Shown here one piece after another: positions 4,023 through 46,613 of a stretch of DNA of 64,000 bases (its first letter is position 1; each line of letters starts with the position of its first letter). The position numbers and the translations under genes are program-made. Location of the stretch: positions 32,134-96,133 of the forward strand of contig CAZXKC010000005.1 of NCBI GenBank assembly GCA_964641225.1, read 5' to 3'. The notes beneath the pieces were generated by a model that was not told the DNA's origin, did not search any database, and saw only the letters and a list, made by a program, of their open reading frames with translations. This DNA is from an uncultured Candidatus Saccharibacteria bacterium. GTDB lineage: Bacteria > Patescibacteriota > Minisyncoccia > UBA6257 > 1-14-0-10-44-23.

Positions 4023-5159
4023 TTATCGAATTTCCGCGGCAAACTGTTTTTTTGTCTCTTCGATCACTTTATTTTGTAACGGCTCAATTTCTTCAACTTT
4101 GAGGGTTCGATCAGTGCTCCGATAGACGATTCGGTAGGCATAGCTGATTTTGTCCGCTCCGAACTTTTTCTCGTTTTCGTATTTATCAAGCAGTGTCACC
4201 TCTTCGGCCAAATCGCCGACAATGTCGCGGATTAGGTCAAAGTAGTTGTTTGGTACGAATGTCTTTGGTACGACAAACGAGATATCGCGCGTGATCGGCG
4301 GATACTTACTGACTGTTTTAAATTTGTTACCAAGTTTCAGTTGTTTTTTTACGCGTTCGTCAGCCGACCAGAAGAGACGGATGTCGGGCAAATCCATGCT
4401 GATGATTCCAAGTCGCTCGAGACCAAATCCAAAAGCCCAACCATTGTATCCTTCAATACCAAAATTTTTAAGTACTGATTTTTTCGGCATTCCTCCACCC
4501 AAAATTTCTATCCAACGATCCCCGACTTTAACCTCAACTTGCAGTGATGGATCTGTGTATGGAAATGTATCGTCCAAAAAGCGATATTCAACATCTTTGC
4601 CAAATAAATTTTCTACGATTTGCGAAAGGACTTTTTTTAGCTCATCAAGCGGCATAATGCCTTTGCTGTCCGGCTGTAAATACCAGGCACCAAATTGATG
4701 GAAGACATTCATGTGTCGACTGTCGATTTCATCCTTTCGGTATACCTTGCCATAGCAGACAGTGCCAACTGACTCGCCACGCGCAATCCGCTCTTGTATC
4801 TCCGGCTGATTCAAATAGTAATACCACATGACCGTATCATGTGTGCGCAAAATATTTTTTTCATCCACGTAGTAAGTATCAGACTTACTTCGTGCAGGAT
4901 GGTTTGGTGCGAAATCGAACAAGTCAAATGTGATAGAGGTCGGTACAATTTCTGGAATGACAATGTTGTCAAGATTTTTTAAAACATCTGTGGCTCGCGC
5001 CCGAGCAACGATTTCGTAGAGGGGGCTCTCCGGCGTCCGCGACAAATCCGGCATCGCCAAAAAGCGCTTCATGCGCAGGGCTTCGGGGTCGCTGCGACCT
5101 TCCAATACTTTTAACGCCTGTTTCTCTTCCGGTGCGTTTATGATGATTTCTTTGGGCAT
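4023..5159 (-). CDS. pheS: Phenylalanine--tRNA ligase, monomeric mitochondrial-like form (PheS catalytic core fused to C-terminal FDX-ACB anticodon-binding domain)
   Basis: Class II motif 2 (YRKDEIDSRHMNVFHQ) and motif 3 (AFGFGLERL) are present. There is no N-terminal coiled coil. An extra ~100 aa C-terminal has the FDX-ACB signature (DISFVVP...YAYRIVYRSTDRTL). Confidence 0.8.
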   Translation of the reverse strand: MPKEIIINAPEEKQALKVLEGRSDPEALRMKRFLAMPDLSRTPESPLYEIVARARATDVLKNLDNIVIPEIVPTSITFDLFDFAPNHPARSKSDTYYVDEKNILRTHDTVMWYYYLNQPEIQERIARGESVGTVCYGKVYRKDEIDSRHMNVFHQFGAWYLQPDSKGIMPLDELKKVLSQIVENLFGKDVEYRFLDDTFPYTDPSLQVEVKVGDRWIEILGGGMPKKSVLKNFGIEGYNGWAFGFGLERLGIISMDLPDIRLFWSADERVKKQLKLGNKFKTVSKYPPITRDISFVVPKTFVPNNYFDLIRDIVGDLAEEVTLLDKYENEKKFGADKISYAYRIVYRSTDRTLKVEEIEPLQNKVIEETKKQFAAEIR

Positions 5160-5805: not shown

Positions 5806-6300
5806 TTGTGCGGGTGTAGACTGACTATGAACCGGCTGAAGTGGTGGCCGGAAGGAGGTGATCATGGCCTGGTTCGGAGGAGAGGGTTCTGGGGGTGGCT
5901 CCGCCACCTACAGACCTCGGAGGATGTTCGATGCCGGGTTCTCTGGTGCTCGCGGGATCAAGCCAGATCCTCTTCCTGCTGGGACCGGCAAGTCGCTGGT
6001 CGGAAGGGCGCACGTGTCCTACGCCTGCTCTGAAAGGCCCTGGGAGGGGCCGGCCGAGTGGGCTCGTCCCACGACGGTCGGCGACCCGCCCGACTGGCAC
6101 AGTCCGTAGGCAGGTCACTGCAGCGAGGGATGCCGGGCGCGCAACGCGCGCCCGGCACTTCGATTTATCCCCTTTGACGATTCTAGTATTTTGCTTTATA
6201 ATTACAACTTACCGGTCAACTGACAGCGGAGTAGGGAAACGGTATCCCGCCACGCTCATAACGTGGAGATAGGACGTTCGACTCGTCTCTCCGCAACCCT
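5806..6300. ncRNA. High-GC non-coding island with tRNA-like 3' end; candidate structured RNA (intron-containing tRNA or other) of unresolved identity
   Basis: No credible ORF. There is a perfect 11-bp hairpin GCCGGGCGCGC-aac-GCGCGCCCGGC. The 3' end has a T-arm-like GGACG-TTCGACT-CGTCT followed by CTCCGCA-A-CCC, which can pair with 5' TGCGGG at 5809-5814. Confidence 0.25.
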
Positions 6301-6436: not shown

Positions 6437-8977
6437 TTAGCCCCCTTTTTTCCCGAGTAATTTAGCGTATTTTTGGAACTGGTCGCCTTTTTCATTAAAG
6501 TCTTTCCAGAGGCTGTAGCTCGGCGAAGCCGTTGAAAGGAGGCAGATGCTCCCCTGCGGCGTATGTTTATACGCGAACGCAATTGCATCTTTCATTTTTT
6601 CTGTCCGGAAAATGTTTAAGTCGGTTGCTTCTACAAATAATCGATTGCCGGTATCCGGGAACAGTACAATATTTTTGATGCCAGCGACTCTAATTTTTGC
6701 CTCTAGTGTTTTAAAGTCATAGCCGCGATCTTCGCCGCCAAGGAAAATAGTTCCTACGTTTTTCAAAGAACGTAGCGCCATAATTGTTGATTCTGGAGTG
6801 GTCGAAATTGCGTCGTCGTAAAACGTGATGCCTTTAAATGTTCCGACTTTTTCAAGTCTGTGCGGGAGCGGTTTAAAGTTTAGTATTGCTTCTCGAATGA
6901 TTTCATCGGGCACAGAAAGCATTTTGGCGACGGTGACTGCAGCGCGAACATTATTGTAATTATGGACGCCGATTAGTGGCAGCTCGTCTTGGCTGACGGG
7001 AAGCTCGGTCGTAAATGGCACTGTTTTTGACCGCGCCTCTTTCGCCCACTCTACGAGGCGGTGATCTTCAGGGTTAAATACAAATGAGTCGTCGCGACGC
7101 TGGAATTTAATAATGTTCTTTTTAGCCAGATAATACGGCTCCTCTCCTTGATGATACGGCAGATGTTCCGGGAATAAATTTGAAATTACGGCGATGTTTG
7201 GTGAATAGCGGCTGTCGTCAAGCTGGTGGCTCGAAAGTTCTAATACAAAAATTTCCCGTGGATCAACCGAGCGCTTGAGTGCGCCAAGCATTGGTACGCC
7301 GATATTGCCAAGCAGGCTTACTTTTTTGCCGGCTTTTTTGAGAATTGCGTAAATGAGTGAGGAGGTTGTGCTTTTGCCTTTTGTGCCCGTGACACCAATG
7401 GTCAAATTGGAGATTTGTGAGAAAAAAAGATTGGTCGCCGTTGTGTACGGAATACTAACAAAGCGTTTTGGAATACCCGGCGTTTTGATGGCGATATCAA
7501 AGTCGGCCTGCATCTGCAGATAGTTTTTACTACGATTCTGGTCGGCAATTCCAAGTTTGAGTTTTGGGAATTTTTTCCGCATAAATTCCTGCGTCACTTT
7601 TCCTTCTTTGCCGTAGCCAAGAATAAGTGCGGTTTTCATACCCGAAAATCTAAACGGAGCAGGTATCAGAGGTGAATCTTGTGTTTTCATCACTCGAGCA
7701 ATCGTCTCTGGAGTTACGGCTAGCTGGTGTTCAAGCGTTTTAAAGACAATAGTTTTTCCATAAATTTTTCTACTCAAATGCAGTGCAGTCTGTACCTCTT
7801 CAAAGGTTCCCACGCAGTCGAATGGTTTGAGGTTACCCTGCCCTATTAAATCTTTAAAGAGCGGCACGAGTGTTTCATCTTCAAACAAATTTTTTCCAAA
7901 AATTGAGATGAGTTTTTTCTTTGGCAGCCATGGCGCTAGAATCGCAAAGACAAACGCACATTTTGCGCAGACGCCGCACCATTTAGTAGTAGACGGTAGT
8001 GAGTAGTCAGTAGACAGCGGGTTGATTTTTGCGACTGCATTGCAACTACTAAAGGCTGAGAAGTATTTTGGATAGGTGCTGAATAATTTTGCGATCCGCA
8101 ACTCGTAAAATGGTCTCAGAATCGAGAAGTAGGTTATGTTTGGCGTCACAAAATTGCGGATGTATTCCTGAAACAGCGTTTCAAATTCTTGCGACTTACT
8201 CCACTGATGATTAATAATTTCCCCTTTGTATTCTAAATTACCAAAGTTGCTGCTAAATTCGTTGGCAACAATTGTGTAGCGATAATCGTAGAGCGCCGCA
8301 GCAAATACGCCGATCCATGCTAACACTGCAGAAATTGGTATGTGTCCGTTAAAGCTATCGGGGTGTTTTTCGAAAATTTGTGGATCGAGCTCCCGGGAAA
8401 TGATCAGGCTTGGCAATTTGGTCGCCTTCATTACGCTCTGGGCTTGCAGGTTTGGTTTTTGTGTCTCGATTAAGATCGCCGTCGCATCTATTTTTTGCTC
8501 TTTAAGGAGCTCGACGGCAACCAGCGAGTCTTTGCCGCCACCGATGCCGATCAGCGAGCGATTACTGCGTTTAAAATCAACGGATTCCGGGCGATGTTCT
8601 GCCGAGCCTGGGAATAATGCTAGTACGCCCGGCTCAAGGTTGTTGCGATATAAAAATTCGCCCAGACCTTTTCTGTACACGGTGTTCCAAAATATGGCCT
8701 GCTCGGGCGAAATTGGTTGATTAAGTTTGATCTCCGGCGGACAGTAGAGTTTGTAATAGCTGATGCCGATAATCAGGTGTAGTCCCTGTAAAATATTTTC
8801 AAGCAATTGCGGCGGAATATCGGCAGAGATTTTTTGGTTGTATGGAAGCGTCAGTTTTTCGGTGAATATCAGCGGCTGGCGATTTGCAAAATGGATCGTG
8901 TAGTTAAATGAGGCCAGGCGCTTTTCCGGTTCAAATGAATAAAACGTGAATTCAAAAATTGTTGGTTTAAGCGTCAT
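6437..8977 (-). CDS. murD: Bifunctional protein: N-terminal QueC-like PP-loop ATP pyrophosphatase domain with CGxCxxC zinc ribbon, fused to C-terminal MurD-type UDP-N-acetylmuramoyl-L-alanine--glutamate ligase
   Basis: N-terminal half has an SGGxDS-like PP-loop (GIGGGKDS) and WCGVCAKC. C-terminal half has the MurD Rossmann N-domain, Mur ligase P-loop GVTGTKGKSTT and a DDAISTTPES-type C-domain; 846 aa. Confidence 0.8.
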   Translation of the reverse strand: MTLKPTIFEFTFYSFEPEKRLASFNYTIHFANRQPLIFTEKLTLPYNQKISADIPPQLLENILQGLHLIIGISYYKLYCPPEIKLNQPISPEQAIFWNTVYRKGLGEFLYRNNLEPGVLALFPGSAEHRPESVDFKRSNRSLIGIGGGKDSLVAVELLKEQKIDATAILIETQKPNLQAQSVMKATKLPSLIISRELDPQIFEKHPDSFNGHIPISAVLAWIGVFAAALYDYRYTIVANEFSSNFGNLEYKGEIINHQWSKSQEFETLFQEYIRNFVTPNITYFSILRPFYELRIAKLFSTYPKYFSAFSSCNAVAKINPLSTDYSLPSTTKWCGVCAKCAFVFAILAPWLPKKKLISIFGKNLFEDETLVPLFKDLIGQGNLKPFDCVGTFEEVQTALHLSRKIYGKTIVFKTLEHQLAVTPETIARVMKTQDSPLIPAPFRFSGMKTALILGYGKEGKVTQEFMRKKFPKLKLGIADQNRSKNYLQMQADFDIAIKTPGIPKRFVSIPYTTATNLFFSQISNLTIGVTGTKGKSTTSSLIYAILKKAGKKVSLLGNIGVPMLGALKRSVDPREIFVLELSSHQLDDSRYSPNIAVISNLFPEHLPYHQGEEPYYLAKKNIIKFQRRDDSFVFNPEDHRLVEWAKEARSKTVPFTTELPVSQDELPLIGVHNYNNVRAAVTVAKMLSVPDEIIREAILNFKPLPHRLEKVGTFKGITFYDDAISTTPESTIMALRSLKNVGTIFLGGEDRGYDFKTLEAKIRVAGIKNIVLFPDTGNRLFVEATDLNIFRTEKMKDAIAFAYKHTPQGSICLLSTASPSYSLWKDFNEKGDQFQKYAKLLGKKGG

Positions 8978-9064
8978 AGACTATAGACATGATAGCTGAA
9001 AAAGAGTCTATTTTACAATTCCAACCAAAATCGCTATACTAACCAGACCAAATTTAATGGTATT

Positions 9065-9138
9065 GCGGGCGTAGCTCAGTTGGTTAGAGCGTCCCCCTGT
9101 CACGGGGAAGGTCACCGGTTCGAGTCCGGCCGTCCGCG
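9065..9138 (+). tRNA. tRNA-Asp (anticodon GTC)
   Basis: GCGGGCG-TA-GCTC-AGTTGGTTA-GAGC-G-TCCCC-CTGTCAC-GGGGA-AGGTC-ACCGG-TTCGAGT-CCGGC-CGTCCGC-G; canonical cloverleaf. Confidence 0.9.
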
Positions 9139-9154
9139 CAGAGAAATCAAATTT

Positions 9155-10340: not shown

Positions 10341-10667
10341 ATGAATATGAATCAAAAAAATGAGTGGGATGGTCCAGAGCGTCGTATTGATCAAGAAAAA
10401 CGAGACGATTTTGACTCGCTTATAAGTATGGCCTCTAAGAAGGTTTATTCAATTGAAGAAACCGGTGAGGAGTGGCAATCTGGCGCTACTATGACAACGA
10501 AGTTTGATTTTGAGAATCCGGATTCTCGAGACGAACAAAGAATCGTCGCTGGTAATACTCTTAAGGAATTTGCGCGGAAACACGGACCTGAAAATGTTCG
10601 CTTTGTTAAGGAGGAGGACGGAAAAGTGAGCGTGTATTTTCGAAAAGTTTTTGCTGAAAAACTTTAA
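10341..10667 (+). CDS. Hypothetical protein
   Basis: 108-aa ORF; no recognisable motif. Confidence 0.4.
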   Translation: MNMNQKNEWDGPERRIDQEKRDDFDSLISMASKKVYSIEETGEEWQSGATMTTKFDFENPDSRDEQRIVAGNTLKEFARKHGPENVRFVKEEDGKVSVYFRKVFAEKL

Positions 10668-11890
10668 TTTATAACGTTTAGAGCTTTCCCTACCTTTGCA
10701 AATGCAGCGACCGTGGTGTCGATGTGGGTTTTTGTGTGCGCAGCTGAGAGTTGGACGCGGATACGGGCCTTGCCGAGTGGAACGACCGGGTAGCTAAAGC
10801 TACGGACGTATACTCCTTCATCAAAAAGCTTGCGAGCAAATTCAGCTGAAAGTTTTTCGTCCATGAGCATGACCGGATTAATCGGATGTTTTCCGTCTCC
10901 ACCCATTTTAAAGCCGAGGGCAGTCATTTTTTCCCGAAAACATGTCGTGTTCTCGGCGAGCGTTGCACGGGCTGGTGCGAGTGTCGAGTCGAAGTTTCGG
11001 AGCGTCCACAAAGCCGTGCCGGCAATGACCGGCGCGAGTGCATTTGAGAAGAGTGAGGTGCGGGAGCGTTGACGAAGCCAGTCAATAATTTCTTTGCGGC
11101 CACTCGTAAAGCCTCCAGAAGCACCGCCCAAGGCTTTGCCAAAAGTTGAGGTGATGATGTCTACTCTGCCCATTACATTTTGCGATTCCACACTTCCCCT
11201 GCCCGCTGCGCCAAGAACGCCCGAAGCGTGAGATTCATCTACCATCACGAGTGCCCCATACTTTTGCGCCAGGTCGCAGATCTCTTTTAATTTTGCGGTG
11301 TCGCCGTCCATACTAAACACTCCGTCGGTGGCGATTAGTATGCGACGCGGTCGAGTCGTACCGTCTGATAGTTTCACTTCGGCGCCTTTTGAGGCGGTCT
11401 GCAGCATGGTTTCAAGTTCGGCCATATCTGCATGTTTGAAACGGAATCGTTCTGCTTTACAGAGGCGTACGCCGTCGATAATGCTGGCGTGATTGAGTTC
11501 ATCAGAGAGAATTGCATCCCCTTCGGAAAGAATAGTTTCAAAAAGTCCGGTGTTAGCATCAAAGCAAGAGGTGTACAAAATTGTGTCGTCGGTCTGTAAA
11601 AATTTTGAGACCTCTTTTTCTAATTCTTTATGAACCGTTGTCGTGCCGATAATAAACGGAACTGAAGCGGTTCCGTAGCCGTATGTGTCGAGCGCCTCAT
11701 GCGCAGCTTTACGGATAGCTTCACTTCCGGCCAGGCCGAGGTAGTTGTTGGCGCAAAAGTTAAGAAGCTTTTTGCCGTTTACAATAATCTCCGGGCCCTG
11801 ATAGCCCTCCATTGTGCCTATGTCTTTGTAGGTGCCCGCATCTTTGAGGCTTTGAATATCTTTTTTAAATTGATCTTGTAAGGGATACAT
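10664..11890 (-). CDS. kbl: 2-amino-3-ketobutyrate CoA ligase (glycine C-acetyltransferase), PLP-dependent alpha-oxoamine synthase
   Basis: Near-colinear with E. coli Kbl (NFCANNYLGL, ILYSSCFDAN, ISDALNHASIIDG, ATDGVFSMDG, GTLGKALGGASGG; PLP lysine in TFGKALGG). Start moved to the internal ATG at 11888-11890 (MYPLQDQ...), which matches the Kbl N-terminus. Confidence 0.85.
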   Translation of the reverse strand: MYPLQDQFKKDIQSLKDAGTYKDIGTMEGYQGPEIIVNGKKLLNFCANNYLGLAGSEAIRKAAHEALDTYGYGTASVPFIIGTTTVHKELEKEVSKFLQTDDTILYTSCFDANTGLFETILSEGDAILSDELNHASIIDGVRLCKAERFRFKHADMAELETMLQTASKGAEVKLSDGTTRPRRILIATDGVFSMDGDTAKLKEICDLAQKYGALVMVDESHASGVLGAAGRGSVESQNVMGRVDIITSTFGKALGGASGGFTSGRKEIIDWLRQRSRTSLFSNALAPVIAGTALWTLRNFDSTLAPARATLAENTTCFREKMTALGFKMGGDGKHPINPVMLMDEKLSAEFARKLFDEGVYVRSFSYPVVPLGKARIRVQLSAAHTKTHIDTTVAAFAKVGKALNVIN

Positions 11891-11982
11891 AGATAAAAAT
11901 CGTAACATAGAAGCGTACCTAAAACGAGTGAGAGCCAGGATTCCCGAAGGAATTCTGGCTCTCTTGTGCGGCCTCTTGTTGC

Positions 11983-12174
11983 CTACCATGTTGGTGGCTT
12001 AGGAGGGTCACATGGAATCATTGCGAGCCAGTAGATGAGGGCTATGAAGGGTACGCCGAGACACAGCGCCAGCGCAACCTCCCACAACTCCAATCCCCAC
12101 AACTTTTTCATGGTTTCCTCCGATTGAGATAGTATTCTTAGAATAGCACTCTTTATTATATTTGTCAATAGCAA
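11983..12174 (-). CDS. Small hydrophobic hypothetical peptide (possibly 42 aa from internal start at 12111)
   Basis: ORF between kbl and tdh; the C-terminal 40 aa are strongly hydrophobic (LALCLGVPFIALIYWLAMIP). GC is higher than in the neighbouring genes. Confidence 0.3.
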   Translation of the reverse strand: MLLTNIIKSAILRILSQSEETMKKLWGLELWEVALALCLGVPFIALIYWLAMIPCDPPKPPTW

Positions 12175-13249: not shown

Positions 13250-13440
13250 ATTTATTTCACATTTTTTGGGGAAGCAGGTGGAACTCCTGCACAGTACCGC
13301 TACGGTTATAGTCCGAGCGCCAGAATGTGATTAGTCTCACTGTCTTAATCCTCGAGTAAGGATGCCAGGCGGATTCGGTGCTCTCCCCAGAACCCGAAAC
13401 CGACCACCCCTCTATCTCGAGATGGGTGTTTTTATTTTTT
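13250..13440 (+). promoter_or_regulatory. Structured 5' leader (~190 nt) ending in an intrinsic terminator immediately upstream of the 13451 ORF; candidate riboswitch/attenuator of unassigned class
   Basis: An extended -10-like TGgTACACT lies upstream. The leader has GGGGAAGCAGG...ACGGUUAUAGUCCGAGCGCC...CCCGAAACCGAC motifs and ends in hairpin CACCCCTCTATCTCGAGATGGGTG (13405-13428) plus TTTTTATTTTTT. Confidence 0.35.
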
Positions 13441-13450: not shown

Positions 13451-15718
13451 ATGCCGGAGTTACGACAACCACGATTTGAAGATGAGGGAGCTGCAACAAC
13501 TACTTCAGAGCGGCCTTTTAGTGGTGAAACACTCGAAGAAGAATTGGAGCGCTTAGAGCAGGAGAAAGCGCAAAGAGAATTAGAGGATCGTTTAGAGCAA
13601 GAACGACTTGAAGCAGAAGAACGTGCTGCTGAGGTTGCCGAAGAAGAGGAACGGATTCAGGCGGAAGATATCTCTCTTATCGAAGCGCTTGGTTCGGATA
13701 AGGTTGAAGTTCGATTTGTTGATCCGGCTGATAAGGCAACGTATCCGCAAGCCAGCTCAGATGGACCAAGCCACCAGGATAAGTCTGGGGTTCCCGTAGC
13801 AAGTCTGCCGCAACGTTTTATAGATGGTAAAAGTCAGAATCCAGACGGTACGTTTGTGGTTGATGAGCTCATGCGCTTAGGTAATGCATCGCCTGAGGGT
13901 CTTGCTCGCGCGCAAAAGCATGACAATGATCTCAATACTCTGCAGTATCATATTTCGGAACCCTTCAAGTCATTTAATGGTGATGGAAAAATGTGGAGGA
14001 CGATCACTCGCGTTAATGCTAACGGAGAAGAGGTTGCTCGAAATTATGAGATTGCGCTTCCTAAAAAGGAAGCAGAGGAAGATGATAATGGAGACCTGCT
14101 TCCGGGTGGTACCAGTGAAGGATTAGGAAATGCGCTCGATTCAGAGGACGATGAGGTGGTCGAAGATGGTTTGCTGGATCCTAATTCGGACGGGCTCGAA
14201 TCCTTGTGGGCCGCCCAAATTTCAGAGCTCGAAAAAAGTAAGGCCTTGAAAGATGCAGAGACTCAGCGAGTCACTGCGCTGAATGTTTCGCCTACTTTAA
14301 GTGCTACAGAGCCTAATGTTTCTGTCATAGCTGCGCAGATGCCGGTTTCTGAAATTTTTGCCACTGAGCCAGGCGTTTCGGCGCAGCCTGAGGCTATAAA
14401 GACACCATCGTTATTTACTGAATCCTTCGCCAGCGCACCATCTGCAGTCAATACGACCGAAAATTTTGCTCTAGAAACAGATTCATTCACTCTTGAGGTC
14501 GCAAACCTGTCTACGCCGGAAGATTCTGTTATTTCATCTCTGGAGCATTTTGCCAATACAGAACCAGTTGTTAGTCATGAGGCTGCGCCTGGGGCTATTA
14601 AGGTATCATCTCACGAGCTACCAGTAGCTCGTGGAGCAGTTGATCTTGCAGTTGAGGTATCTGCGACAACGAGTGAAATAATTTCAGAGCCGGTAGCTCT
14701 TGTTCCAGAAATTTTAAGTGAAGAGAGTGTCGCGGAAAATTCAATAGCAACAGATGCAGCTTCAGAGATTAGCAATGAGTTTACGATTAATTTTTCGTCA
14801 GGTGATTTATTTAAGCCTGAAATCGTCCTGGCTGAAACGATGACGAACGGCGCGCAGACGCATACAGAGACATTTGCGCAGCCCGTCTTTGAAACACCGA
14901 CGGTTGAATTTGATGTAGCTCCTGAGGAGGCTATTACAGAATCTGCACCTGTTACAGAGCTTCACGAGGACGCAATGCCCTCCATTGAATCAGCCGCAGA
15001 GGTTGCTTCTATTCTATTTCCTAAAGAAAAATCAGTGCCTGTTGAAGTCGTAGCTGTCGCGCCGGAAATTGCCCCCACTCAAGTTGTAGCTATCCCGGCC
15101 GCACCGAGAGAGGCAATTACGCTGACGTTTAAAAAAGATATCGCGCAACCGACTGTTGCGCGCATAGAAGCAACGAAACCTAAGTCCGTTGAGGTTTTGA
15201 AAGATGAAGTGCCAGCGGCTAAGGCAAAAGAAGTGGTGCCCCCCCCAGCAGAGAAGGCAGAACCAATTCGGCTTGTTCGGAATGAAGCAGCCCCTATTCC
15301 AGTTGCCCGTAAGGCTGAACAGAAACATGTTGATCAATCGCCGAATGTACCTTCGGTAGAGAAATCAGCAGGTAGAATTTTGAAATTTGAAGATGCTGTT
15401 GCTAATAAAGAGCGCCGCTCCCCTTCGCTAACACCTGAAATATTAAAAACACCCGTTCAGAAAATTTCGAATCCGCTTGTACGATCAAAAGTCCCAGAGG
15501 CTGTGCAGCGTCGACAGGAGCGTGAGGAGCTCCCGACTTTTGCTTCTTCAGTTGTTCGGGCTCGAGAGGTTGCGCGAGTTACCCAAGAGGTGCACAATTT
15601 CAAGCCGCGTAGTACGGCTGCTCTGTCTGACATAATCTCACAAGAAACTCGAGAGCGGCGTATTCTAGACATAGAAGACCTACCGGAGGTTGGAATCCGG
15701 ATGCTTCGTCGAGCCTAA
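13451..15718 (+). CDS. Large acidic low-complexity protein (755 aa), function unknown
   Basis: Long uninterrupted ORF in an AT-rich genome, E/A/S/T/V/P-rich with an N-terminal E/R coiled-coil-like region. No signal peptide or TM segment. Confidence 0.55.
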   Translation: MPELRQPRFEDEGAATTTSERPFSGETLEEELERLEQEKAQRELEDRLEQERLEAEERAAEVAEEEERIQAEDISLIEALGSDKVEVRFVDPADKATYPQASSDGPSHQDKSGVPVASLPQRFIDGKSQNPDGTFVVDELMRLGNASPEGLARAQKHDNDLNTLQYHISEPFKSFNGDGKMWRTITRVNANGEEVARNYEIALPKKEAEEDDNGDLLPGGTSEGLGNALDSEDDEVVEDGLLDPNSDGLESLWAAQISELEKSKALKDAETQRVTALNVSPTLSATEPNVSVIAAQMPVSEIFATEPGVSAQPEAIKTPSLFTESFASAPSAVNTTENFALETDSFTLEVANLSTPEDSVISSLEHFANTEPVVSHEAAPGAIKVSSHELPVARGAVDLAVEVSATTSEIISEPVALVPEILSEESVAENSIATDAASEISNEFTINFSSGDLFKPEIVLAETMTNGAQTHTETFAQPVFETPTVEFDVAPEEAITESAPVTELHEDAMPSIESAAEVASILFPKEKSVPVEVVAVAPEIAPTQVVAIPAAPREAITLTFKKDIAQPTVARIEATKPKSVEVLKDEVPAAKAKEVVPPPAEKAEPIRLVRNEAAPIPVARKAEQKHVDQSPNVPSVEKSAGRILKFEDAVANKERRSPSLTPEILKTPVQKISNPLVRSKVPEAVQRRQEREELPTFASSVVRAREVARVTQEVHNFKPRSTAALSDIISQETRERRILDIEDLPEVGIRMLRRA

Positions 15719-15748: not shown

Positions 15749-17419
15749 ATGGCAACCGATTTCAAAAGAATTGAATATCATAACCTTCGAGCCGAGGCCG
15801 GAAAACTCCCAGCCGTCATTGGCCACACAGAGGAAGTTGAAAGGCTTACGCGCGTTATCAGTCGTCGAATCAATAACAACGCGCTTATTGTCGGTGCCAG
15901 CGGAAGCGGCAAGACAACACTTCTTCGCGGCTGGATTAAACAACTTTGTGCCAACGAGGCATTTGGGCAATTGCAGTTTGTACAATTTGACGCCAGCCAT
16001 CTCCATGATTTAAGTGAGGTTGATGACACGCGGCGTTACCAAGAGGCGTTTGCTACGCTACCGCCTTCTGTTGTCTGCATTGATGGATTTGGTTCTGCTG
16101 CGCAGAATAACGCGGCGCTGATGCAGCGCATTATTCGGCTCTACACAGCATTTTTTAAGAATTCTCAGGTCCGTCTTGTACTCACGCTTTCTCCGAGTGA
16201 GTTTTCCTGGATAGAGCGCGAGTATCCGCAATTTTTGCAATCATTTGAGGTAATTACACTCAAGCAGCAGACGACTATTGAATATATTGCGATGCTGCAG
16301 CACATGCTGCCCCGACTTAATGAAAGTCATAATATTGAAGTGCCTGCCGGTGCACTGCAGGAGCTCGTTGAACTTGTTGAACGGTTTCCAAAATTAGGGA
16401 CACTGCCTCGATCGGCAATTACCCTGCTTGATGAATGTATCGCTGCAGCTGCCGCGTCGGGTTCTAAAACGCTTACTGATGAGCTAGTACAGAACGTAGT
16501 TGCCAGCAAAACTAATATTCCGGTTGCGAAACTGAAACGCAATGAACTCAGCACTGTTCGTAATTTAGAGACAGAACTCAATGAGCGTGTTGTCGGCCAA
16601 GAGGGTGCAATTAAGAAAATTGCTGCCGCACTTCAACGGGCTGCTCTTGGTATGCGTAATCCCAACAAGCCACGGGGTTCCTTCTTAATGCTGGGGCCTT
16701 CGGGAGTTGGTAAAACCGAGACGGCAAAGATGGTTGCAGAAAAAATGTTTGGCAGCGCCGAAAGCTTTATTCGCTTTGATATGAGTGAATTTGCGCAAGA
16801 GCATACTGTGCAGCGTCTGATTGGCGCTCCGGCTGGCTATGTTGGTCATGACGAAGGTGGCGCGCTTACCAATGCACTTCGTGCCCAGCCGCATAGCTTG
16901 ATTTTGCTTGATGAAATTGAAAAGGCGCACCCGAAGGTGTTTGATATTTTCTTGCAGGTACTCGACGATGGCCGTTTGACTTCAGGGCAAAACGAGACGG
17001 TTGATGCGCGTCACGCAATCATTATGATGACCTCAAACATTGCCGTGCCCGGAATTATTTCTGGTATTGAGGCAGGTAGAGATGTTCATAGTGAGCAATT
17101 TATTCAAGAAGAGGTGTTGCCGTCGCTGGCTGATGTATTTCGTCTTGAATTTATCAATCGTTTTGATCACATTCTTGTCTTTAATCCCCTTACGCTGCCG
17201 ACACTCTTAGCGATCGCTCAACTGGAAATCAAAAAGATTGAAAAGCGTTTGGCTAAGCACAATGTAGAATTTCAAATTGATCCGGCGGTGCTTGAGGAGC
17301 GCATAAAGCAACTTGCCGATCCCCGTTTCGGCGCCCGGCCGGTTAAACGATTCATCGAGGAGACGTGTGAGTCATTGCTCGTAAAATCACTTCTCAAAGA
17401 ACATGATATTGCACAGTAA
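15749..17419 (+). CDS. Compact Clp/Hsp100-family AAA+ ATPase (degenerate D1 + canonical ClpA/B D2 domain)
   Basis: D1-like GASGSGKTTLL. D2 matches are LMLGPSGVGKTETAK, the sensor region ...LILLDEIEKAHPKVFDIFLQVLDDGRLT..., and a C-terminal small domain FINRFD...ARPVKRFIEE. No N-domain or M-domain. Confidence 0.8.
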   Translation: MATDFKRIEYHNLRAEAGKLPAVIGHTEEVERLTRVISRRINNNALIVGASGSGKTTLLRGWIKQLCANEAFGQLQFVQFDASHLHDLSEVDDTRRYQEAFATLPPSVVCIDGFGSAAQNNAALMQRIIRLYTAFFKNSQVRLVLTLSPSEFSWIEREYPQFLQSFEVITLKQQTTIEYIAMLQHMLPRLNESHNIEVPAGALQELVELVERFPKLGTLPRSAITLLDECIAAAAASGSKTLTDELVQNVVASKTNIPVAKLKRNELSTVRNLETELNERVVGQEGAIKKIAAALQRAALGMRNPNKPRGSFLMLGPSGVGKTETAKMVAEKMFGSAESFIRFDMSEFAQEHTVQRLIGAPAGYVGHDEGGALTNALRAQPHSLILLDEIEKAHPKVFDIFLQVLDDGRLTSGQNETVDARHAIIMMTSNIAVPGIISGIEAGRDVHSEQFIQEEVLPSLADVFRLEFINRFDHILVFNPLTLPTLLAIAQLEIKKIEKRLAKHNVEFQIDPAVLEERIKQLADPRFGARPVKRFIEETCESLLVKSLLKEHDIAQ

Positions 17420-17739: not shown

Positions 17740-19020
17740 ATGTCGTATGTAACTATTGGTATAAATGAATATCGCAGTAAAAAGGTGCCGATTCAGTCGC
17801 GCGAAACTGACCGGCTGCGCCACATGTACATGATCGGTAAAACCGGCGTGGGCAAATCAACCGTGTTTCAAAGTATGTGTTTGCAGGACATCAAGAGTGG
17901 TCAAGGAACCTGCTTTATCGATCCACACGGTGAATCGATTGATTGGTTACTTAAACGTATTCCCGCGGAGCGACTCGAGGACGTCATTTTGTTTGACCCC
18001 AGCGATACTGAGTTCCCTTTTGGGCTTAATTTGCTTGAGGGTCACACCGAGCAGGAGAAAGATTTCCTTGTTTCGGAGTGTATTCAGATTTTTTATAAAT
18101 TATTTGATCCGGAGAAAACCGGTATTATCGGCCCACAATTTGAGCACTGGCTGCGTAATGCCGCTTTGACAGTAATGGCCGGCCCTGAGGGTGGCAGCAT
18201 TATTGAGATTCCAAAATTATTTGTTGATAAGGAATTTGAGATGAGCAAACGCAAGCATTTGACCGATCCTCTCGTGATTGATTTTTGGACAAAGCAGATG
18301 ACCAAGACCTCTGATTTTCACAAGAGTGAAATGCTCAACTATTTTATGAGTAAGTTTGGCCATTTTATGAACAACGCGCTGATGCGCAACATTATTGGTC
18401 AGCATCAGAGCAGTTTTAGTTTTGATGAGGTTATGAGTGGCAAAAAAATATTGCTCGTAAATCTTTCAAAAGGAAAAATTGGCGAGATGAACGCGCATAT
18501 GCTTGGTCTGATTCTTATCTCGAAGCTTCAGGCGGCAATCCTCAAGCGTGCTAATCAACCAAGCGCAGATAGATCTCCGTTCTATTTGTACGTAGATGAG
18601 TTTCAAAATTTTGTCACCGATACCTTTGTCAGTATTTTGAGTGAATCCCGAAAATACGGACTTGGGGCGCATATTACGAATCAATACTTGGCGCAGTTGC
18701 CGGAAAAAATTAAAGACGCGGTGCTCGGCAACGTGGGTACGCTGCTTTCGTTTGAAGTCGGAGCTGAAGATGCCGAATTGTTATCAAAAGAATTCGAGCC
18801 GCTTGAGCCGGCTGATTTTATGGGGCTGCCGCGCTACAACTTTTATATTAAGCTCATGGTCAACGGTAAAACGAGTCCAGCATTTTCTGGTGTGAGCATT
18901 GCTCCGGAGGCTGCTTATGATTCCGGTCTTATGGAACAAAATGTATTCACCCTCAATCGCCTTGCCTTCGGCTCGCCGCGATTACTTGTTGAGCAGCAGA
19001 TAAAGAATCAATTGCAGTAA
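17740..19020 (+). CDS. P-loop NTPase of the DUF87 / TraD-TraG (type IV secretion coupling protein-like) family, soluble form
   Basis: Walker A MIGKTGVGKST, Walker B LYVDEFQNF, and conserved T4CP-like segments (FIDPHGE, FGLNLLEG). No TM helices. Confidence 0.55.
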   Translation: MSYVTIGINEYRSKKVPIQSRETDRLRHMYMIGKTGVGKSTVFQSMCLQDIKSGQGTCFIDPHGESIDWLLKRIPAERLEDVILFDPSDTEFPFGLNLLEGHTEQEKDFLVSECIQIFYKLFDPEKTGIIGPQFEHWLRNAALTVMAGPEGGSIIEIPKLFVDKEFEMSKRKHLTDPLVIDFWTKQMTKTSDFHKSEMLNYFMSKFGHFMNNALMRNIIGQHQSSFSFDEVMSGKKILLVNLSKGKIGEMNAHMLGLILISKLQAAILKRANQPSADRSPFYLYVDEFQNFVTDTFVSILSESRKYGLGAHITNQYLAQLPEKIKDAVLGNVGTLLSFEVGAEDAELLSKEFEPLEPADFMGLPRYNFYIKLMVNGKTSPAFSGVSIAPEAAYDSGLMEQNVFTLNRLAFGSPRLLVEQQIKNQLQ

Positions 19021-23390: not shown

Positions 23391-23434
23391 CCGCGCCTTT
23401 CGGAGTCATTCCGAAGGGCGCGGCTTCTTTTTTT
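23391..23434 (+). terminator. Intrinsic terminator CCGCGCCTTTCGGA-gtcat-TCCGAAGGGCGCGG + CTTCTTTTTTT
   Basis: 13/14-bp stem followed by a T-run immediately after the 23384 stop. Confidence 0.7.
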
Positions 23435-24302
23435 ATACAAGGGAGAAGTACCACCGCGCGAGCACTTCACCATAAAATACGGCTACAAAAAATCCAATTA
23501 CAAGAAATGGACCAAAAGGTACGGCGGCTTTCATAGTGGCGCGCCGACGAGCGATCAAGAGCAGTCCTACCACTGAACCAATTACGAAGGCGGCTGCAAA
23601 GGCAATAATTGAGTCTGGCCAACCAAGAATAAGTGCCAGCGGAATAGCAAGCTTTACATCTCCCATCCCCATCCCCCGTTCTTTTGTTAAGAAGACTATG
23701 CCGCCAAAAATAAGTAGTGCGACTCCTGCTGCAATCAGTGCGCTTATCATTGGAGAATCGGGCGCGCCAAGTGTTGCACCGTAACTACCAAGAAAGCTTT
23801 GATATGGTATAAGTCCAAGAGATTTGATGGTGATCAGAACGATGCCGATTAGGCCGAGTAATATATTAGATTGATCGGGAATCAGTTGAAGTCGTAGATC
23901 GATCGCTGACAGTGTGATGCAGGTGTAGGTAGCTACGAGCCAGAGGCCGATGGTGAGATAAATCCAGATGAGTGAGTGGTCCTGTGACAGTAGCGAAATT
24001 CCTGCCAGATGACGAAATAAAAAGAATGGGAGTATCGCAGTCAGGAGGCCTGTAATTAATTCAATGAGCGGATACTGCCAACGAAGTGGTTTTTTGCAGC
24101 CGCGACAGGCACCGCACTGAATCACAAAGCTAATAATGGGAATTAACTCATACCAGTGCAGCACTTTTTTGCAGTGCATGCAGTGCGATCGCCCTTGTAC
24201 GCGTTTCGTGAAAAAAATAGACTGACCATCTTCGTATCGAAGCGACAGGACATTGATAAAGCTGCCGATTGCAACACCGAAGATAAAAAGAATAGCCCAC
24301 AT
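23433..24302 (-). CDS. pilD: Prepilin peptidase (type IV leader peptidase/N-methyltransferase, A24 family)
   Basis: N-terminal CxxC...CxxC zinc motif (CMHCKK...CGACRGC) and the multi-TM A24 peptidase core with conserved Asp residues. Confidence 0.85.
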   Translation of the reverse strand: MWAILFIFGVAIGSFINVLSLRYEDGQSIFFTKRVQGRSHCMHCKKVLHWYELIPIISFVIQCGACRGCKKPLRWQYPLIELITGLLTAILPFFLFRHLAGISLLSQDHSLIWIYLTIGLWLVATYTCITLSAIDLRLQLIPDQSNILLGLIGIVLITIKSLGLIPYQSFLGSYGATLGAPDSPMISALIAAGVALLIFGGIVFLTKERGMGMGDVKLAIPLALILGWPDSIIAFAAAFVIGSVVGLLLIARRRATMKAAVPFGPFLVIGFFVAVFYGEVLARWYFSLV

Positions 24303-24324
24303 AGCACTTATAATAACGAGTACG

Positions 24325-25395
24325 TCACTTAATCAGCATTCGTAATTCGCTTGGGTTAAGCGAATACAACTCGGCGTTTTCCGGTGTAATCAATTTACGT
24401 TTAACTAAATTTGCCAAGCCACGATTGAGTGTCATCATGCCTTCTTCTGCATTAGTTTCGATGACGACATCGATTTGGTAACCCTTTCGTTCACGGATAA
24501 GATTTCTGATCGCCGAATTAACGATCATGATTTCTGCAACTGGTACGCGCCCACCACCGATTTTTGGAACAAGGCGTTGACTGACGATAGCGACAAGTGT
24601 CGCAGAAAGTTGGCTGATTGCTTGCGTCTGCTGGCCCGACGGGAAGGTATCGATAATACGATCAATAGTTTGGCTGGCTGAATTGGTGTGTAACGTTGAA
24701 AGAACAAGGTGTCCGGTTTCGGCGGCGGTCATTGCGGTACTGATTGACTCTGAGTCGCGCATTTCACCAAGCATGATTACGTCTGGGTCTTGGCGCAGAA
24801 TTGAGCGGAGACCATTTTGAAATGAGGCGGTGTCTGAGCCTACTTCACGTTGAGAAATTACACAGCGGTCTTGAGTAAACTGATACTCAATTGGGTCTTC
24901 GATGGTGATTATATGTTCTGTTCTGGTTTTATTAATCTCATCCATGATTGCTGCAAGCGTAGTTGATTTGCCTTGCCCTGCCGGGCCGACGAGCAACACA
25001 AAGCCTTGCGACAATTTTGCTATATCATGCAAGATGGGCGGAAGATTTAATTCTTCGATTGAGCGAATTTTTGCTGGAATTAAACGAAATGCACCGGCCA
25101 TAAAACCGCGCTGGTAGAATACGTTTGCACGAAAACGAGTGCTATCTCCTTCGTATGTAAATGAGAAGTCCAGCTCTTTATTTGTTTTTAAGCGATAGAG
25201 TTGGTCTGGAGAAAGCAGCGAGGTAATTAATCCTTCGGCAACTTCAGGAGTTACAATAGGCTCTGCTTCAAGCGGTACGAGTGAACCGTCAAGACGAATA
25301 TTTGGTTTTTTCCCTACCGCAATGTGCAAGTCTGACGCATTTTGTTTTGCTGTTGTAGACAGCAATGAGTTCATGTGTTGCTTAAAGTTTTCCAT
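24325..25395 (-). CDS. pilT: Type IV pilus retraction ATPase PilT
   Basis: Walker A LLVGPAGQGKSTT, Asp box, Walker B and His box; PilT length (356 aa). Confidence 0.85.
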   Translation of the reverse strand: MENFKQHMNSLLSTTAKQNASDLHIAVGKKPNIRLDGSLVPLEAEPIVTPEVAEGLITSLLSPDQLYRLKTNKELDFSFTYEGDSTRFRANVFYQRGFMAGAFRLIPAKIRSIEELNLPPILHDIAKLSQGFVLLVGPAGQGKSTTLAAIMDEINKTRTEHIITIEDPIEYQFTQDRCVISQREVGSDTASFQNGLRSILRQDPDVIMLGEMRDSESISTAMTAAETGHLVLSTLHTNSASQTIDRIIDTFPSGQQTQAISQLSATLVAIVSQRLVPKIGGGRVPVAEIMIVNSAIRNLIRERKGYQIDVVIETNAEEGMMTLNRGLANLVKRKLITPENAELYSLNPSELRMLIK

Positions 25396-25527
25396 ACCGG
25401 GCAGTAGAAATGCGAGTTTTTAATTACAGTTTTTAATATATTTTTGGTACACCTTCAAGCAAACCACCACCATAGACTGTTTTTTGAGAAATTACGTTGC
25501 TCGCATTTTCACTGCCCGGCAGGTTCT

Positions 25528-26619
25528 TTACATTAAGTCCTTTATAGCTAAACCAAGTGCGACCGTGAGTGTAGCATTAAGTTCCGGTAAAATAGTGGTT
25601 AGTTCGGGAGGATATGCAACGGTTGTCCCGAGTGCGGTTGCATGTGTTGTTGGCAATTTGAGCTGATCTATCACGTACTGCTCTATGCCTTTGAGTTGCG
25701 ACCCTGCTCCACAGAGCACTACATTAGTAACCTGCTCTCCTGTCGCCGTAGTAAAGGAATTCATTGCCCGTCCTGCTTCAGAAAGTATAGCACCGATAAC
25801 CGGCGCAACGATCGTGGATAACTCATGTCCGCCGGCCGTTGTTGCAATGGTGCTTTGGCGTTTTAATGCCTCTGCCCTGCCAACGCTGATCGCCAAGGCC
25901 TGGGCTACTGTTTGAGTTGCCGAGTCGCTACTAAAGTCGGTCTGGGTAAGCGTATATACGACCCCGTTTTTTGCCACCGTACAGGTGCTGGAGCGACCGC
26001 CGATATCGATAATCAGCGTTGGTTCTTTGGTTGCGAGGGTTACGGCTCGCGCAATACTAATACTTTCAAGCTCAATATCTTTGATGGTGAAGCCGGCTTT
26101 TTTTGCAACATTCGTGTATTCATTAACACGATCTGTTGGGATCGCCATAAACAGAATTTTCTGATGCTTGACTCCGTCTGGATGCATAACCTCACCAACG
26201 TGCACCCATCTGATTGTTGTTTCGGTCATAGGCAACGGCAGGTATGCGCTTGCAGCAGCCATTGCTGCTGCCTCGAGTGCTCGATCTGAGGTGCTGCTGG
26301 TAGGAACATCAATAAGTGCTGTTTGGGCTATAAAAGCAGGTAGTGCGAGGTTTGCCGCAAGAGTTTTAAACTGTGCTTTATTTCGGATTTCTACTAAATA
26401 TGCATATAGATCGTCGCTTAATGGATGTAAGCTGCTCGATTGAAGTGCATTATTTAAGGTGTTTGAGCGATCTGCCAGCTCAAGCATGGCATAATTTGTC
26501 AGAGTGCGAGCGCCTTGCACGTTCGTCACCTCGGCAACTTTAATGCTGACGGTGCCGATATCGATACCTAGGCTTACTGACGAGTTTTTTGATTTCTTAA
26601 ATCTTCCAAAAAGTGACAT
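25528..26619 (-). CDS. pilM: Type IV pilus assembly protein PilM (actin-like ATPase)
   Basis: N-terminal MSLFGRFKKSK...LGIDIGTVSIKVAEV actin-fold phosphate-1 motif. Start moved to the internal ATG at 26617-26619; the track's 72-aa N-extension looks spurious. Confidence 0.8.
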   Translation of the reverse strand: MSLFGRFKKSKNSSVSLGIDIGTVSIKVAEVTNVQGARTLTNYAMLELADRSNTLNNALQSSSLHPLSDDLYAYLVEIRNKAQFKTLAANLALPAFIAQTALIDVPTSSTSDRALEAAAMAAASAYLPLPMTETTIRWVHVGEVMHPDGVKHQKILFMAIPTDRVNEYTNVAKKAGFTIKDIELESISIARAVTLATKEPTLIIDIGGRSSTCTVAKNGVVYTLTQTDFSSDSATQTVAQALAISVGRAEALKRQSTIATTAGGHELSTIVAPVIGAILSEAGRAMNSFTTATGEQVTNVVLCGAGSQLKGIEQYVIDQLKLPTTHATALGTTVAYPPELTTILPELNATLTVALGLAIKDLM

Positions 26620-26641
26620 GATACGATAATACCATATTTGT

Positions 26642-27361
26642 ATGTTGTCTTCGCTGCGAGAACATATACTTAATACTCTGTTTCCTCCTATTTGCATTGC
26701 CTGCAAGAAAGATCTTGCAAAAGATACTGCGGAATCTATTCTGTGTGTTTCATGTATGCATTCAGCCACTATGCAGCCGCAGTTAAACTGTTCTGTGTGT
26801 CGTCGTCGATTGCCGTTTGGCGAGGCTGGCATATTGCCGCGCTCTTTGCGATGTCATCCGAGCGCCTCTCATCTAATTTTTTCAGCATGCTCATATGAAC
26901 ATCCCGTCATACGGGCATTAATTTGGCATTTGAAATTTAAACGACAGACAGAAGCAGCTCAGATTTTAGGAAAATTTCTTGATGCTGCGCTCAGAGAATC
27001 GGGTATAGATCTGACTGACACCCGCGCCGTGCCGCTTCCCCTATCTGCGGCTAGATTACGAGATCGTGGTTTTAACCAAGCGGAATTAATTGCGCGCCAA
27101 TTGCATGCGCCCATCGATCATCTGCTTGTACGCATGAAGCATACACATCCGCAGTCAGAAATTGCACGTTGGGATCAGCGACGTATAAATATTGCAGGTG
27201 TTTTTGCGTTAGTAACGCATGCAGTTATTGATGACCGCGAGATTGTATTAATTGATGACGTCTGGACCTCTGGAGCAACTATGAGTGAGGCTGTGGCTGT
27301 ACTAAAAGAAGGCGGAGCACGTGATGTGCTGGCGATTGTGGTTGCCCGGGCTGGGCAGTGA
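26642..27361 (+). CDS. comF: Competence protein ComF (ComFC, phosphoribosyltransferase-like)
   Basis: N-terminal Cys-rich zinc finger (CIACKK...CVSC...CSVCRRR) and C-terminal PRTase motif VLIDDVWTSGAT. Confidence 0.8.
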   Translation: MLSSLREHILNTLFPPICIACKKDLAKDTAESILCVSCMHSATMQPQLNCSVCRRRLPFGEAGILPRSLRCHPSASHLIFSACSYEHPVIRALIWHLKFKRQTEAAQILGKFLDAALRESGIDLTDTRAVPLPLSAARLRDRGFNQAELIARQLHAPIDHLLVRMKHTHPQSEIARWDQRRINIAGVFALVTHAVIDDREIVLIDDVWTSGATMSEAVAVLKEGGARDVLAIVVARAGQ

Positions 27362-34513: not shown

Positions 34514-34517
34514 TGCC

Positions 34518-38107: not shown

Positions 38108-38115
38108 GATGGTAT

Positions 38116-39189: not shown

Positions 39190-39197
39190 ACGAAAGG

Positions 39198-40370: not shown

Positions 40371-40371
40371 A

Positions 40372-41115
40372 TCATTTAGTAGCAGACCAAACCACGTAAA
40401 AATCTAAAAATGGAAATACCGTATGCAGCACCAAAGAAACAAAGCTGTGTAAGCCGAGTAAGAATTTTTTAAGAAAAGAACGTTTTTTGATATCTGGTTG
40501 AAAACGCAAAAAAGTGATTTTGGAAGTTGAAAAGTGCCTTTTTAAAGCTGCATTTAACTGCCACGGGATAAAATATTTTTCTTTGAAGGGAAAATCTCTT
40601 GGATACATCCATCTATTTGTTAGCTCATTAAATTTTTTCCACAGATACGTGGGAATAAAATACACGTGATGCAATGAAAGGATATTTTTATCTATTAACA
40701 CGAAAGTTCCTCGTTTTTTTAAGACTCTAGCCATTTCCCTTAGAGCTGATTCTGCGTCGGGAATATGCTCCAGCACTTCAATGCAAAGTACATAATCGAA
40801 GTAATCATCGGTAAATGGTAAAGAGGCTGCATCCGCTTGTATAAACTGGATGTCTTTATTAATCACTTTAGCTTCGCGTACCAATTCACTGGCTGGCTCA
40901 ACTCCGACGACTTCAAATCCCTTATCTTCTAATTTACGCGTAAATGATCCTCTTCCGCATCCTACATCTAATATTTTTTTGTTTTTATTAGGTTCTCCAA
41001 GAAATTCTAAAACTTTTTTTAATTCAAAATTAGAATCATCTATGGATGAGGTTACGGCCCGAAGACCCTCGGGCGCATTAAATCGTTCAATTATTTTATT
41101 TTTTAACTCCTCCAT
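40372..41115 (-). CDS. Class I SAM-dependent methyltransferase
   Basis: Motif I ILDVGCGRGSF, followed by motif II/III spacing. Confidence 0.8.
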   Translation of the reverse strand: MEELKNKIIERFNAPEGLRAVTSSIDDSNFELKKVLEFLGEPNKNKKILDVGCGRGSFTRKLEDKGFEVVGVEPASELVREAKVINKDIQFIQADAASLPFTDDYFDYVLCIEVLEHIPDAESALREMARVLKKRGTFVLIDKNILSLHHVYFIPTYLWKKFNELTNRWMYPRDFPFKEKYFIPWQLNAALKRHFSTSKITFLRFQPDIKKRSFLKKFLLGLHSFVSLVLHTVFPFLDFYVVWSATK

Positions 41116-41121
41116 ACCAGA

Positions 41122-41892: not shown

Positions 41893-41900
41893 GAATCTGT

Positions 41901-43000: not shown

Positions 43001-43074
43001 AAAGTAAGAGAAAACCTGAATCCAGGTAAGGTCTTTACTATAACTAAAAAAATACTCAAATGCAAATCAGAAAA

Positions 43075-46611: not shown

Positions 46612-46613
46612 AT

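Follow-up and report, generated by a model that had tools for sequence, protein, structure and literature searches.

A single gene on the minus strand of a 64,000-nucleotide stretch from an uncultured Candidatus Saccharibacteria bacterium (contig CAZXKC010000005.1, positions 32,134 to 96,133) appears to join in one chain the two enzymes that place D-glutamate in the peptidoglycan precursor of Xanthomonas. The whole 64-kb stretch is called the window here, and what is said about the genome is limited to it. The gene, at 6437..8977, is read as a MurL epimerase fused to a MurD2 ligase, i.e., a bifunctional enzyme of peptidoglycan precursor synthesis, and the probability of this reading is put at about 85%. 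The pathway itself is already known from the Xanthomonas oryzae pair XOO_1319/XOO_1320, where MurD2 ligates L-Glu to UDP-N-acetylmuramoyl-L-alanine (UDP-MurNAc-L-Ala) and MurL then turns the terminal L-Glu into D-Glu in one direction, with ATP and Mg2+ needed and AMP formed (PMC5808125, PMC8788868). The gene described here is a fused single-chain variant in the ultra-small Patescibacteria, the activity of which is predicted from the Xanthomonas enzymes.

The gene is one uninterrupted open reading frame (ORF) with an ATG start that codes for 846 amino acids (aa) and a stop codon, as read from the ORF list and the translation. M447 (MKTALILGYG) is the first residue of the MurD Rossmann domain, so that an N-terminal extension of 446 aa remains, where an earlier note on this DNA had estimated about 430. 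The parts are as follows, the first being taken from the ORF list and translation with homologues of full length, and the last from matches to TIGR01087, Pfam and the PDB.

6437..8977, minus strand: the whole fused gene, murL-murD2
7640..8977, minus strand: the MurL part, residues 1-446, forming the N-terminal extension
6437..7639, minus strand: the MurD2-type Mur ligase module, residues 447-846 with three Mur ligase domains, and the stop codon

On the fusion protein Pfam recognizes Mur_ligase_M and Mur_ligase_C only, at residues 529-815, the NCBIfam murD model TIGR01087 covers residues 464-838 with 238.8 bits (cutoff 211.95), and the ligase part matches the MurD structure 3lk7 in the PDB with an expect (E) value of 2e-50. 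The fusion of a PP-loop domain to MurD that the earlier note had claimed is thus borne out by the single 846-aa frame and by the TIGR01087 and Pfam matches. A full-length AlphaFold2 (AF2) model has a predicted local distance difference test score (pLDDT) of 93.5 and a predicted template modelling score (pTM) of 0.90, with a pLDDT of 95-96 across the junction of MurL and MurD2. Because the model is confident throughout, including the junction, the protein is predicted to form a compact body and not two domains on a flexible tether. Such a body would be compatible with a direct hand-over of the intermediate, and conservation together with the predicted structure makes substrate channelling between the two modules conceivable.

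The N-terminal part was identified by the NCBIfam model NF041275 ‘MurL_Xanthmoales’, which represents UDP-N-acetyl-alpha-D-muramoyl-L-alanyl-L-glutamate epimerase and matches residues 7-401 (model positions 9-392 of 447) with an E value of 6.4e-94 and 315 bits. A tblastn search of PLSDB led to a record of Xanthomonas sacchari, annotated as murL followed by ‘murD’ with a 20-nt overlap, and the MurL domain of the fusion is 35% identical to this MurL across 419 aligned columns. Common to both are the motifs IGGGKDSLV, GHIP, NHQWSK, SSCN, WCGVCxKCxFVF and KPF[D/E]CVG, so that the homology to Xanthomonas MurL extends over the full length and includes the same PP-loop and the same five cysteines. 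The MurL sequence also lies directly upstream of the MurD2 sequence, in the murL-murD order of X. sacchari. In Xanthomonas, however, MurL is a separate 451-aa protein, whereas here it is covalently joined to MurD2, and the known MurL proteins come from Pseudomonadota or Actinomycetota, whereas the fusion, whose activity is predicted, comes from Patescibacteria. Precomputed tables assign PF26298 and PF26299 to all listed homologues. The comparison with MurD2-MurL pairs proposed in the earlier note was thus made, and the X. sacchari pair agrees in motifs and gene order. The note had counted an N-terminal homology with no link to the Mur substrate as a ground against its proposal, and the match to the MurL family does provide such a link; its suggestion of the MurD2/MurL epimerization route of Xanthomonas gains support from this homology and from the signature residues of the ligase (see below).

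Standalone relatives of MurL were also seen on three Pseudonocardia plasmids, with no MurD2 nearby; one is the Pseudonocardia alni plasmid pPaSha1 (L085, 4959-6359), and the further plasmid matches are H1 and H2. These proteins are 30-31% identical to the fusion protein and 37.5% identical to Xanthomonas MurL, and they keep the PP-loop, all five cysteines and the motif in the form KPFECVG. They are annotated as hypothetical and adjoin a large WD40-repeat gene; the plasmid protein may be a MurL-type epimerase that acts on another substrate.

The MurL part contains the following motifs.

8525..8542, minus strand: the PP-loop GGGKDS, residues 146-151, the predicted site for the alpha- and beta-phosphates of ATP in adenylation
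8195..8212, minus strand: NHQWSK, residues 256-261, an invariant motif of the MurL family that is also present in the Xanthomonas and Pseudonocardia homologues
7958..8044, minus strand: cysteines C312, C334, C337 and C340 (SSCN ... CGVCAKC), a predicted zinc site of the QueC type
7808..7828, minus strand: KPFDCVG, residues 384-390, with the fifth invariant cysteine, Cys388; the motif is KPF[D/E]CVG in Xanthomonas and Pseudonocardia

Conservation, locus counts and the tree described below were taken from the best 80 of at least 596 loci that a MurL profile found when one genome of each GTDB species was scanned; nearly all of these 80 are from Patescibacteria. NHQWSK and KPFDCVG served as search patterns for gathering these loci and are conserved in them by construction. 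G148, S151, C312, C334, C337 and C340 lie outside the search patterns and are nevertheless conserved in 80/80 loci, which argues that the motifs are not due to chance. The PP-loop positions are kept in 79-80 of the 80 loci, and the first position, Gly in the fusion, is Ser in nine of the relatives. The PP-loop that the earlier note had described as of the SGGxDS type is therefore present, with Gly instead of Ser as its first residue, and the CGxCxxC ribbon motif of that note is found as CGVCAKC at residues 334-340 together with C312.

A profile of 31 MurL homologues was searched against the sequences of the PDB, and nearly all matches were PP-loop ATP pyrophosphatases, all aligned at the PP-loop: TtuA (E 2.4e-4), MnmA, NAD synthetase (NadE) and GMP synthase (GuaA). 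The AF2 model of the MurL part, built from the alignment of the 31 homologues, has a pLDDT of 93.3 and a pTM of 0.92. When it was compared with the PDB using Foldseek, QueC (2pg3) came out on top (E 2.3e-5), followed by the QueC-like Cap9 and the QueC of Bacillus subtilis, and the QueC and Cap9 matches align across 176/195 and 166/181 residues. The SGGxDS-type PP-loop ends the first strand of a Rossmann-like fold, as is characteristic of PP-loop ATP pyrophosphatases. The profile search, the AF2 model and Foldseek hence agree with the QueC-like fold put forward in the earlier note, in which adenylation is a prediction. The link to QueC rests on the structure comparison, because hhalign, run with the MurL alignment and E. 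coli QueC, aligned the PP-loop alone (probability 11%). That the MurL part might be QueC proper, a preQ0 synthase, was rejected on this low probability and on the lack of a Pfam QueC match in the protein at E values up to 1. Compared with QueC and the QueC-like Cap9 of the type IV cyclic-oligonucleotide-based antiphage signalling system (CBASS), to which it is 13-16% identical, the MurL part has two additional domains, an N-terminal one of ~125 aa and a helical C-terminal one of ~100 aa, and its expected outcome is an epimerization and not the formation of an amide or nitrile.

It is the latter chemistry that gives some weight to the other option of the earlier note, amidation. QueC, NAD synthetase, asparagine synthetase and nitrile synthetase, all structurally similar PP-loop enzymes, couple adenylation to an attack by ammonia, and a MurD fused to a PP-loop amidating enzyme could likewise adenylate the alpha-carboxylate of Glu and make iso-glutamine in the manner of MurT/GatD, at the stage of the nucleotide precursor. 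This is very unlikely, however, as the full-length homology given above is to MurL, a reported epimerase with ATP and Mg as its sole requirements, and as neither the gene nor a neighbour has a glutaminase domain and no MurT model matches the protein; moreover, the L-Glu signature of the ligase part makes sense only if an epimerase follows.

For MurL as an epimerase, the QueC-like PP-loop fold offers a structural reason for the formation of AMP. MurL has been said to lack known conserved domains (PMC5808125, PMC8788868), and the conserved PP-loop and QueC-like fold are sequence correlates of an AMP-forming epimerization that fit the reported AMP (PMC5808125). Judging from their conservation and the QueC-like fold, the four cysteines C312, C334, C337 and C340 are likely to bind a zinc with a structural role, as the cysteines of QueC do. 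A TtuA/LarE-type [4Fe-4S] cluster was judged less likely, since the number of ligand cysteines, four, is that of QueC and since ATP and Mg2+ are the only requirements listed for recombinant Xanthomonas MurL (PMC5808125). Cys388, which lies in the motif that is best conserved across the family, is a candidate for the catalytic base or for a thioester nucleophile.

The ligase part was aligned with E. coli MurD, and the MurD2 of X. sacchari was compared for local motifs. The positions that bear on the substrate are listed here.

7367..7387, minus strand: the Mur ligase ATP P-loop GTKGKST, residues 531-537, aligned with the E. coli GSNGKST that contains K115
7163..7168, minus strand: E604-H605, with E604 in the place of E. 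coli MurD D182 and corresponding to E197 of X. oryzae MurD2, the first putative L-Glu determinant
6806..6808, minus strand: I724, aligned with E. coli MurD K319 (ISTTP motif)
6725..6727, minus strand: R751, in the place of E. coli MurD K348 and equivalent to X. oryzae MurD2 R358, the second putative L-Glu determinant
6515..6523, minus strand: P819-S820-Y821, aligned with E. coli A414-S415-L416 and equivalent to P433 and F435 of MurD2

The general catalytic and UDP-MurNAc-binding residues of MurD are retained (K535, N558, E580, H605, K619 and T726), and the ligase shares with canonical MurD (TIGR01087; PDB 1uag, 3lk7 and 4buc) the fold and the residues that bind ATP, Mg and UDP-MurNAc-L-Ala. 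It differs around the incoming amino acid (D182E, K319I, K348R and A414P), so that Asp182, Lys319 and Lys348 of the canonical D-Glu pocket are Glu, Ile and Arg, and its fusion partner is an epimerase, for which a D-Glu ligase would have no use. Canonical MurD from E. coli, S. agalactiae and T. maritima has Lys at the K319 position, and the position of R751 is Arg in 77/77 related loci. It was reported that X. oryzae MurD2 differs from E. coli MurD at E197, R358, P433 and F435, that the E197D/R358K double mutant of MurD2 switches wholly to D-Glu, and that the K319T mutant of E. coli MurD accepts L-Glu (PMC8788868). The module resembles X. oryzae MurD2 in being a three-domain Mur ligase with E604 and R751 for E197 and R358, P819 and Y821 for P433 and F435, and ISTTP instead of K319; with X. 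sacchari MurD2 it has in common NLFPEHL (identical), ISTTP, DRG and PS[F/Y]. Over its length it is 32% identical to Xanthomonas MurD2, which equals its identity with E. coli MurD. Xanthomonas MurD2 has an insertion in its N-terminal domain that is absent here, and the module forms the C-terminal half of the fusion. By analogy with the Xanthomonas enzyme, we infer that the MurD2 module ligates L-Glu, and not D-Glu, to UDP-MurNAc-L-Ala, and since the pocket residues are replaced, the fusion protein should not be filed as a D-Glu ligase.

Public annotation by the NCBI and JGI pipelines labels most homologues ‘D-glutamate ligase’ (P0017, P0018, P0023, P0026 and others), a name that follows from their passing the TIGR01087 cutoff, and one JGI homologue entry carries the name of the MurL epimerase. 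On the residues described, the label is probably a systematic error in the name of the substrate.

Several points weigh against the reading of the gene as a MurL joined to an L-Glu-adding MurD2. Going only by its score, the ligase part lies above the cutoff of the canonical murD model. An Arg at the position of K348 is also present in the streptococcal MurD, which uses D-Glu, and no single residue is decisive, so that the call for L-Glu rests on the combination of residues. The 315 bits of the MurL match stand against an equivalog cutoff of 700 bits, and orthology to MurL is therefore presumed from the match and not certified, although a score below the cutoff is to be expected since NF041275 was built, and its cutoff set, for Xanthomonadales. 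The view is one of 64 kb, and murI or a second murD may lie elsewhere in the genome. Finally, a reference title in PMC11974145 speaks of glutamate racemase activity in Ca. Saccharimonas aalborgensis, a bacterium of the Candidate Phyla Radiation (CPR), and CPR bacteria are not uniform in having MurI. A canonical MurD that adds D-Glu supplied by a murI elsewhere, and that carries a drifted or regulatory MurL-like domain, would agree with the murD score, with the names given by NCBI and JGI, with the presence of MurI in some CPR bacteria and with a view limited to 64 kb. Such a protein is improbable, however, because at E604, R751 and I724 the protein agrees with MurD2 and departs from the canonical MurD of E. 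coli and T. maritima, and because the PP-loop, the five cysteines and the other MurL motifs are invariant over the 80 loci (by construction for the two search patterns), pointing to selection on catalysis; the pairing of murL with murD2 is, moreover, retained in 78/80 loci.

The genomic setting bears on both the pathway and the source of D-Glu. In the window the gene stands alone between tRNA-Asp (9065-9139, plus strand) and tRNA-Met (6226-6295, plus strand), and one upstream feature was noted.

8989..9018, minus strand: a weak match to a sigma-70-like promoter (TTGTAA, 18 nt, TATCAT) immediately before the ATG, a match to the consensus only

In related genomes the orthologue is found 0.03-2.3 kb from other mur genes, with murC nearby in seven loci (L008, L032, L033, L034, L037, L050 and L054), murE in L037 and L003, and murF in L074, and none of the extra Mur ligases near the orthologues is a second murD. 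This company of murC, murE or murF without another murD ties the orthologue to peptidoglycan precursor synthesis and suggests that the fusion fills the MurD step. Among the window ORFs, phmmer with E. coli MurD returned the fusion as the only homologue, and phmmer with E. coli MurI returned none; a MurI homologue was likewise absent from the flanks (up to 10 kb) of the 80 related loci. Pfam scans of 58 window ORFs showed no Asp/Glu racemase and no fold-type-IV aminotransferase, and the sole gene of aminotransferase fold in the window (10664-11989) is a glycine C-acetyltransferase. The earlier note had named the presence of murI and a second canonical murD as grounds for giving up its proposal, and neither was found in the 64 kb; the source genome may lack murI.

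The isolated position of the gene, outside a mur or division and cell wall (dcw) cluster, also leaves room for the idea that the enzyme pair acts on a glycopeptide or polymer other than the peptidoglycan precursor, for instance on the precursor of a capsule or on a secondary wall polymer; for this idea one might further cite the abundance of glycan-synthesis genes in the window and the Pseudonocardia MurL homologues that have no adjoining MurD2. The clustering of the orthologues with murC, murE or murF, with no other murD in these clusters, and the conservation of the UDP-MurNAc-binding and catalytic residues of MurD speak against it, and we regard it as very improbable.

If the fusion is a MurL-MurD2 enzyme, its reactions can be outlined by analogy with the Xanthomonas enzymes, from which the ligation of L-Glu, the dependence on ATP and Mg, the formation of AMP and the one-way epimerization are carried over. 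The MurD2 module would add L-Glu to UDP-MurNAc-L-Ala, with ATP going to ADP and Pi. The MurL module, with its QueC-like PP-loop core, would then use ATP, forming AMP, to adenylate the new terminal Glu, presumably on its alpha-carboxylate. The adenylation would make the alpha-proton acidic, and a conserved residue, for which Cys388 of KPFDCVG is the best candidate, would invert the centre either as a base or via a thioester. In this way D-Glu would reach the cell wall with no need for a glutamate racemase or for a pool of free D-Glu. The physiological end would be that served by MurI, D-Glu at position 2 of the stem peptide, but MurI is unrelated in fold, uses no cofactor or ATP and catalyses a reversible reaction on free glutamate, whereas the MurL-MurD2 route comes into play once Glu has been ligated, and ATP drives it in one direction. 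A wider proposal, that in a large clade of Patescibacteria the fused MurL-MurD2 is the sole route of D-Glu to the wall, with neither racemase nor free D-Glu and with inversion at Cys388 possibly via an acyl-thioester, is put forward tentatively, at somewhat less than even odds.

The fusion is widespread. Of 8000 candidates scored from a set of 5.8 billion proteins clustered at 90% identity, 1366 matched at E <= 1e-10, and the best 120 were all full-length fusions of 811-881 aa, those that carry names being assigned to Moranbacteria, Buchananbacteria, Staskawiczbacteria, Pacebacteria, Parcubacteria or Patescibacteria. A profile search of 1.84 billion representatives at 50% identity gave 3295 MurL-domain clusters at E <= 1e-3 and 1529 at E <= 1e-30, the top 150 of which include both standalone (~450 aa) and fused (~800-900 aa) forms. 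Among the 80 loci, 50 are fused, 28 have murL followed directly by a separate murD2, which is the order of Xanthomonas, and two are cut by contig ends. The split genes overlap in 18 of 27 measurable pairs, in nine of them by 4 nt, so that a change of one base would be enough for fusion. For the same reason, the long ORF could in principle be an assembly or frameshift artefact in which a single-base error has joined two genes. This is extremely improbable, however, given that the 120 full-length matches represent separate clusters from independent sources, that the 50 fused species loci form essentially one clade, and that the AF2 model shows a well-ordered junction. A neighbour-joining tree of the MurL domain places the fused forms in one large clade, which includes the protein studied here, and one small clade. 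Although the tree is rough and the sample biased to relatives of this protein, it points to at least two fusions and to separate genes as the state at the root. The origin of the fusion is best explained by an adjacent, often overlapping murL-murD2 pair like those of Xanthomonas and other Patescibacteria.

The MurL domain on these proteins had already been detected by NCBIfam, by one JGI product name and by the PF26298/PF26299 assignments. No mention of a single-chain MurL-MurD2, of its wide occurrence in Patescibacteria or of the QueC-like PP-loop fold of MurL was found in the searchable literature, and Patescibacteria are not named in the reviews PMC5808125 and PMC8788868.

Other features of the window may be recorded briefly. 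An AdoCbl-II (cobalamin) riboswitch (13257-13330, plus strand, 56 bits) lies directly upstream of a 755-aa ORF (13451-15718, plus strand), which is not a usual B12-regulated gene; its product has no Pfam, NCBIfam or PDB sequence match and is acidic and of low complexity, rich in Ala, Glu, Ser, Pro and Val. At about 44400-45300 the G+C content is 0.53 against ~0.42 in the flanks, and long ORFs overlap on both strands (44448-45137 and 44522-45241, plus; 44550-45266, minus). One of these ORFs was scanned and had no Pfam or NCBIfam match, the segment has no Rfam match at the gathering threshold, and it could be non-coding or foreign. A 378-aa single-chain PheS-like protein (4023-5159, minus strand), with a class II core and an FDX-ACB domain, scores similarly against the models for the ‘PheS-related mystery ligase SrmL’ and for mitochondrial-type PheRS, below both cutoffs. 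Two glycan-synthesis gene clusters (33059-48066 and 57694-61499) encode two Wzx/MurJ-like flippases, several GT4 glycosyltransferases, two UDP-GlcNAc 2-epimerases, LicD, a cytidylyltransferase, a methyltransferase, several NAD-dependent sugar epimerases/dehydratases, an initiating sugar transferase and a short 216-aa pyruvate-kinase-barrel protein (41901-42551). Type IV pilus genes (23433-26832, minus strand) encode a PilD-like prepilin peptidase, a T2SSE-family ATPase and PilM, and there are also a TraG/VirD4-like coupling protein (17740-19020) and a ClpB-like AAA protein (15749-17419).

Relatives of MurL-MurD2 occur in at least 596 species-level genomes, mostly of Patescibacteria, a group that accounts for much of bacterial diversity; where metabolic reconstructions of such genomes show a ‘missing murI’, this may thus not be a true gap. 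For MurL itself, the QueC-like PP-loop fold and the conserved cysteines provide a concrete, testable mechanism for its AMP-forming, one-way epimerization, and inversion through an acyl-thioester at Cys388, if true, would be a kind of ATP-driven stereoinversion for which no structural description exists so far. The natural single-chain form of both enzymes would also be convenient for structural and biochemical work and for the study of pathway-specific inhibitors.

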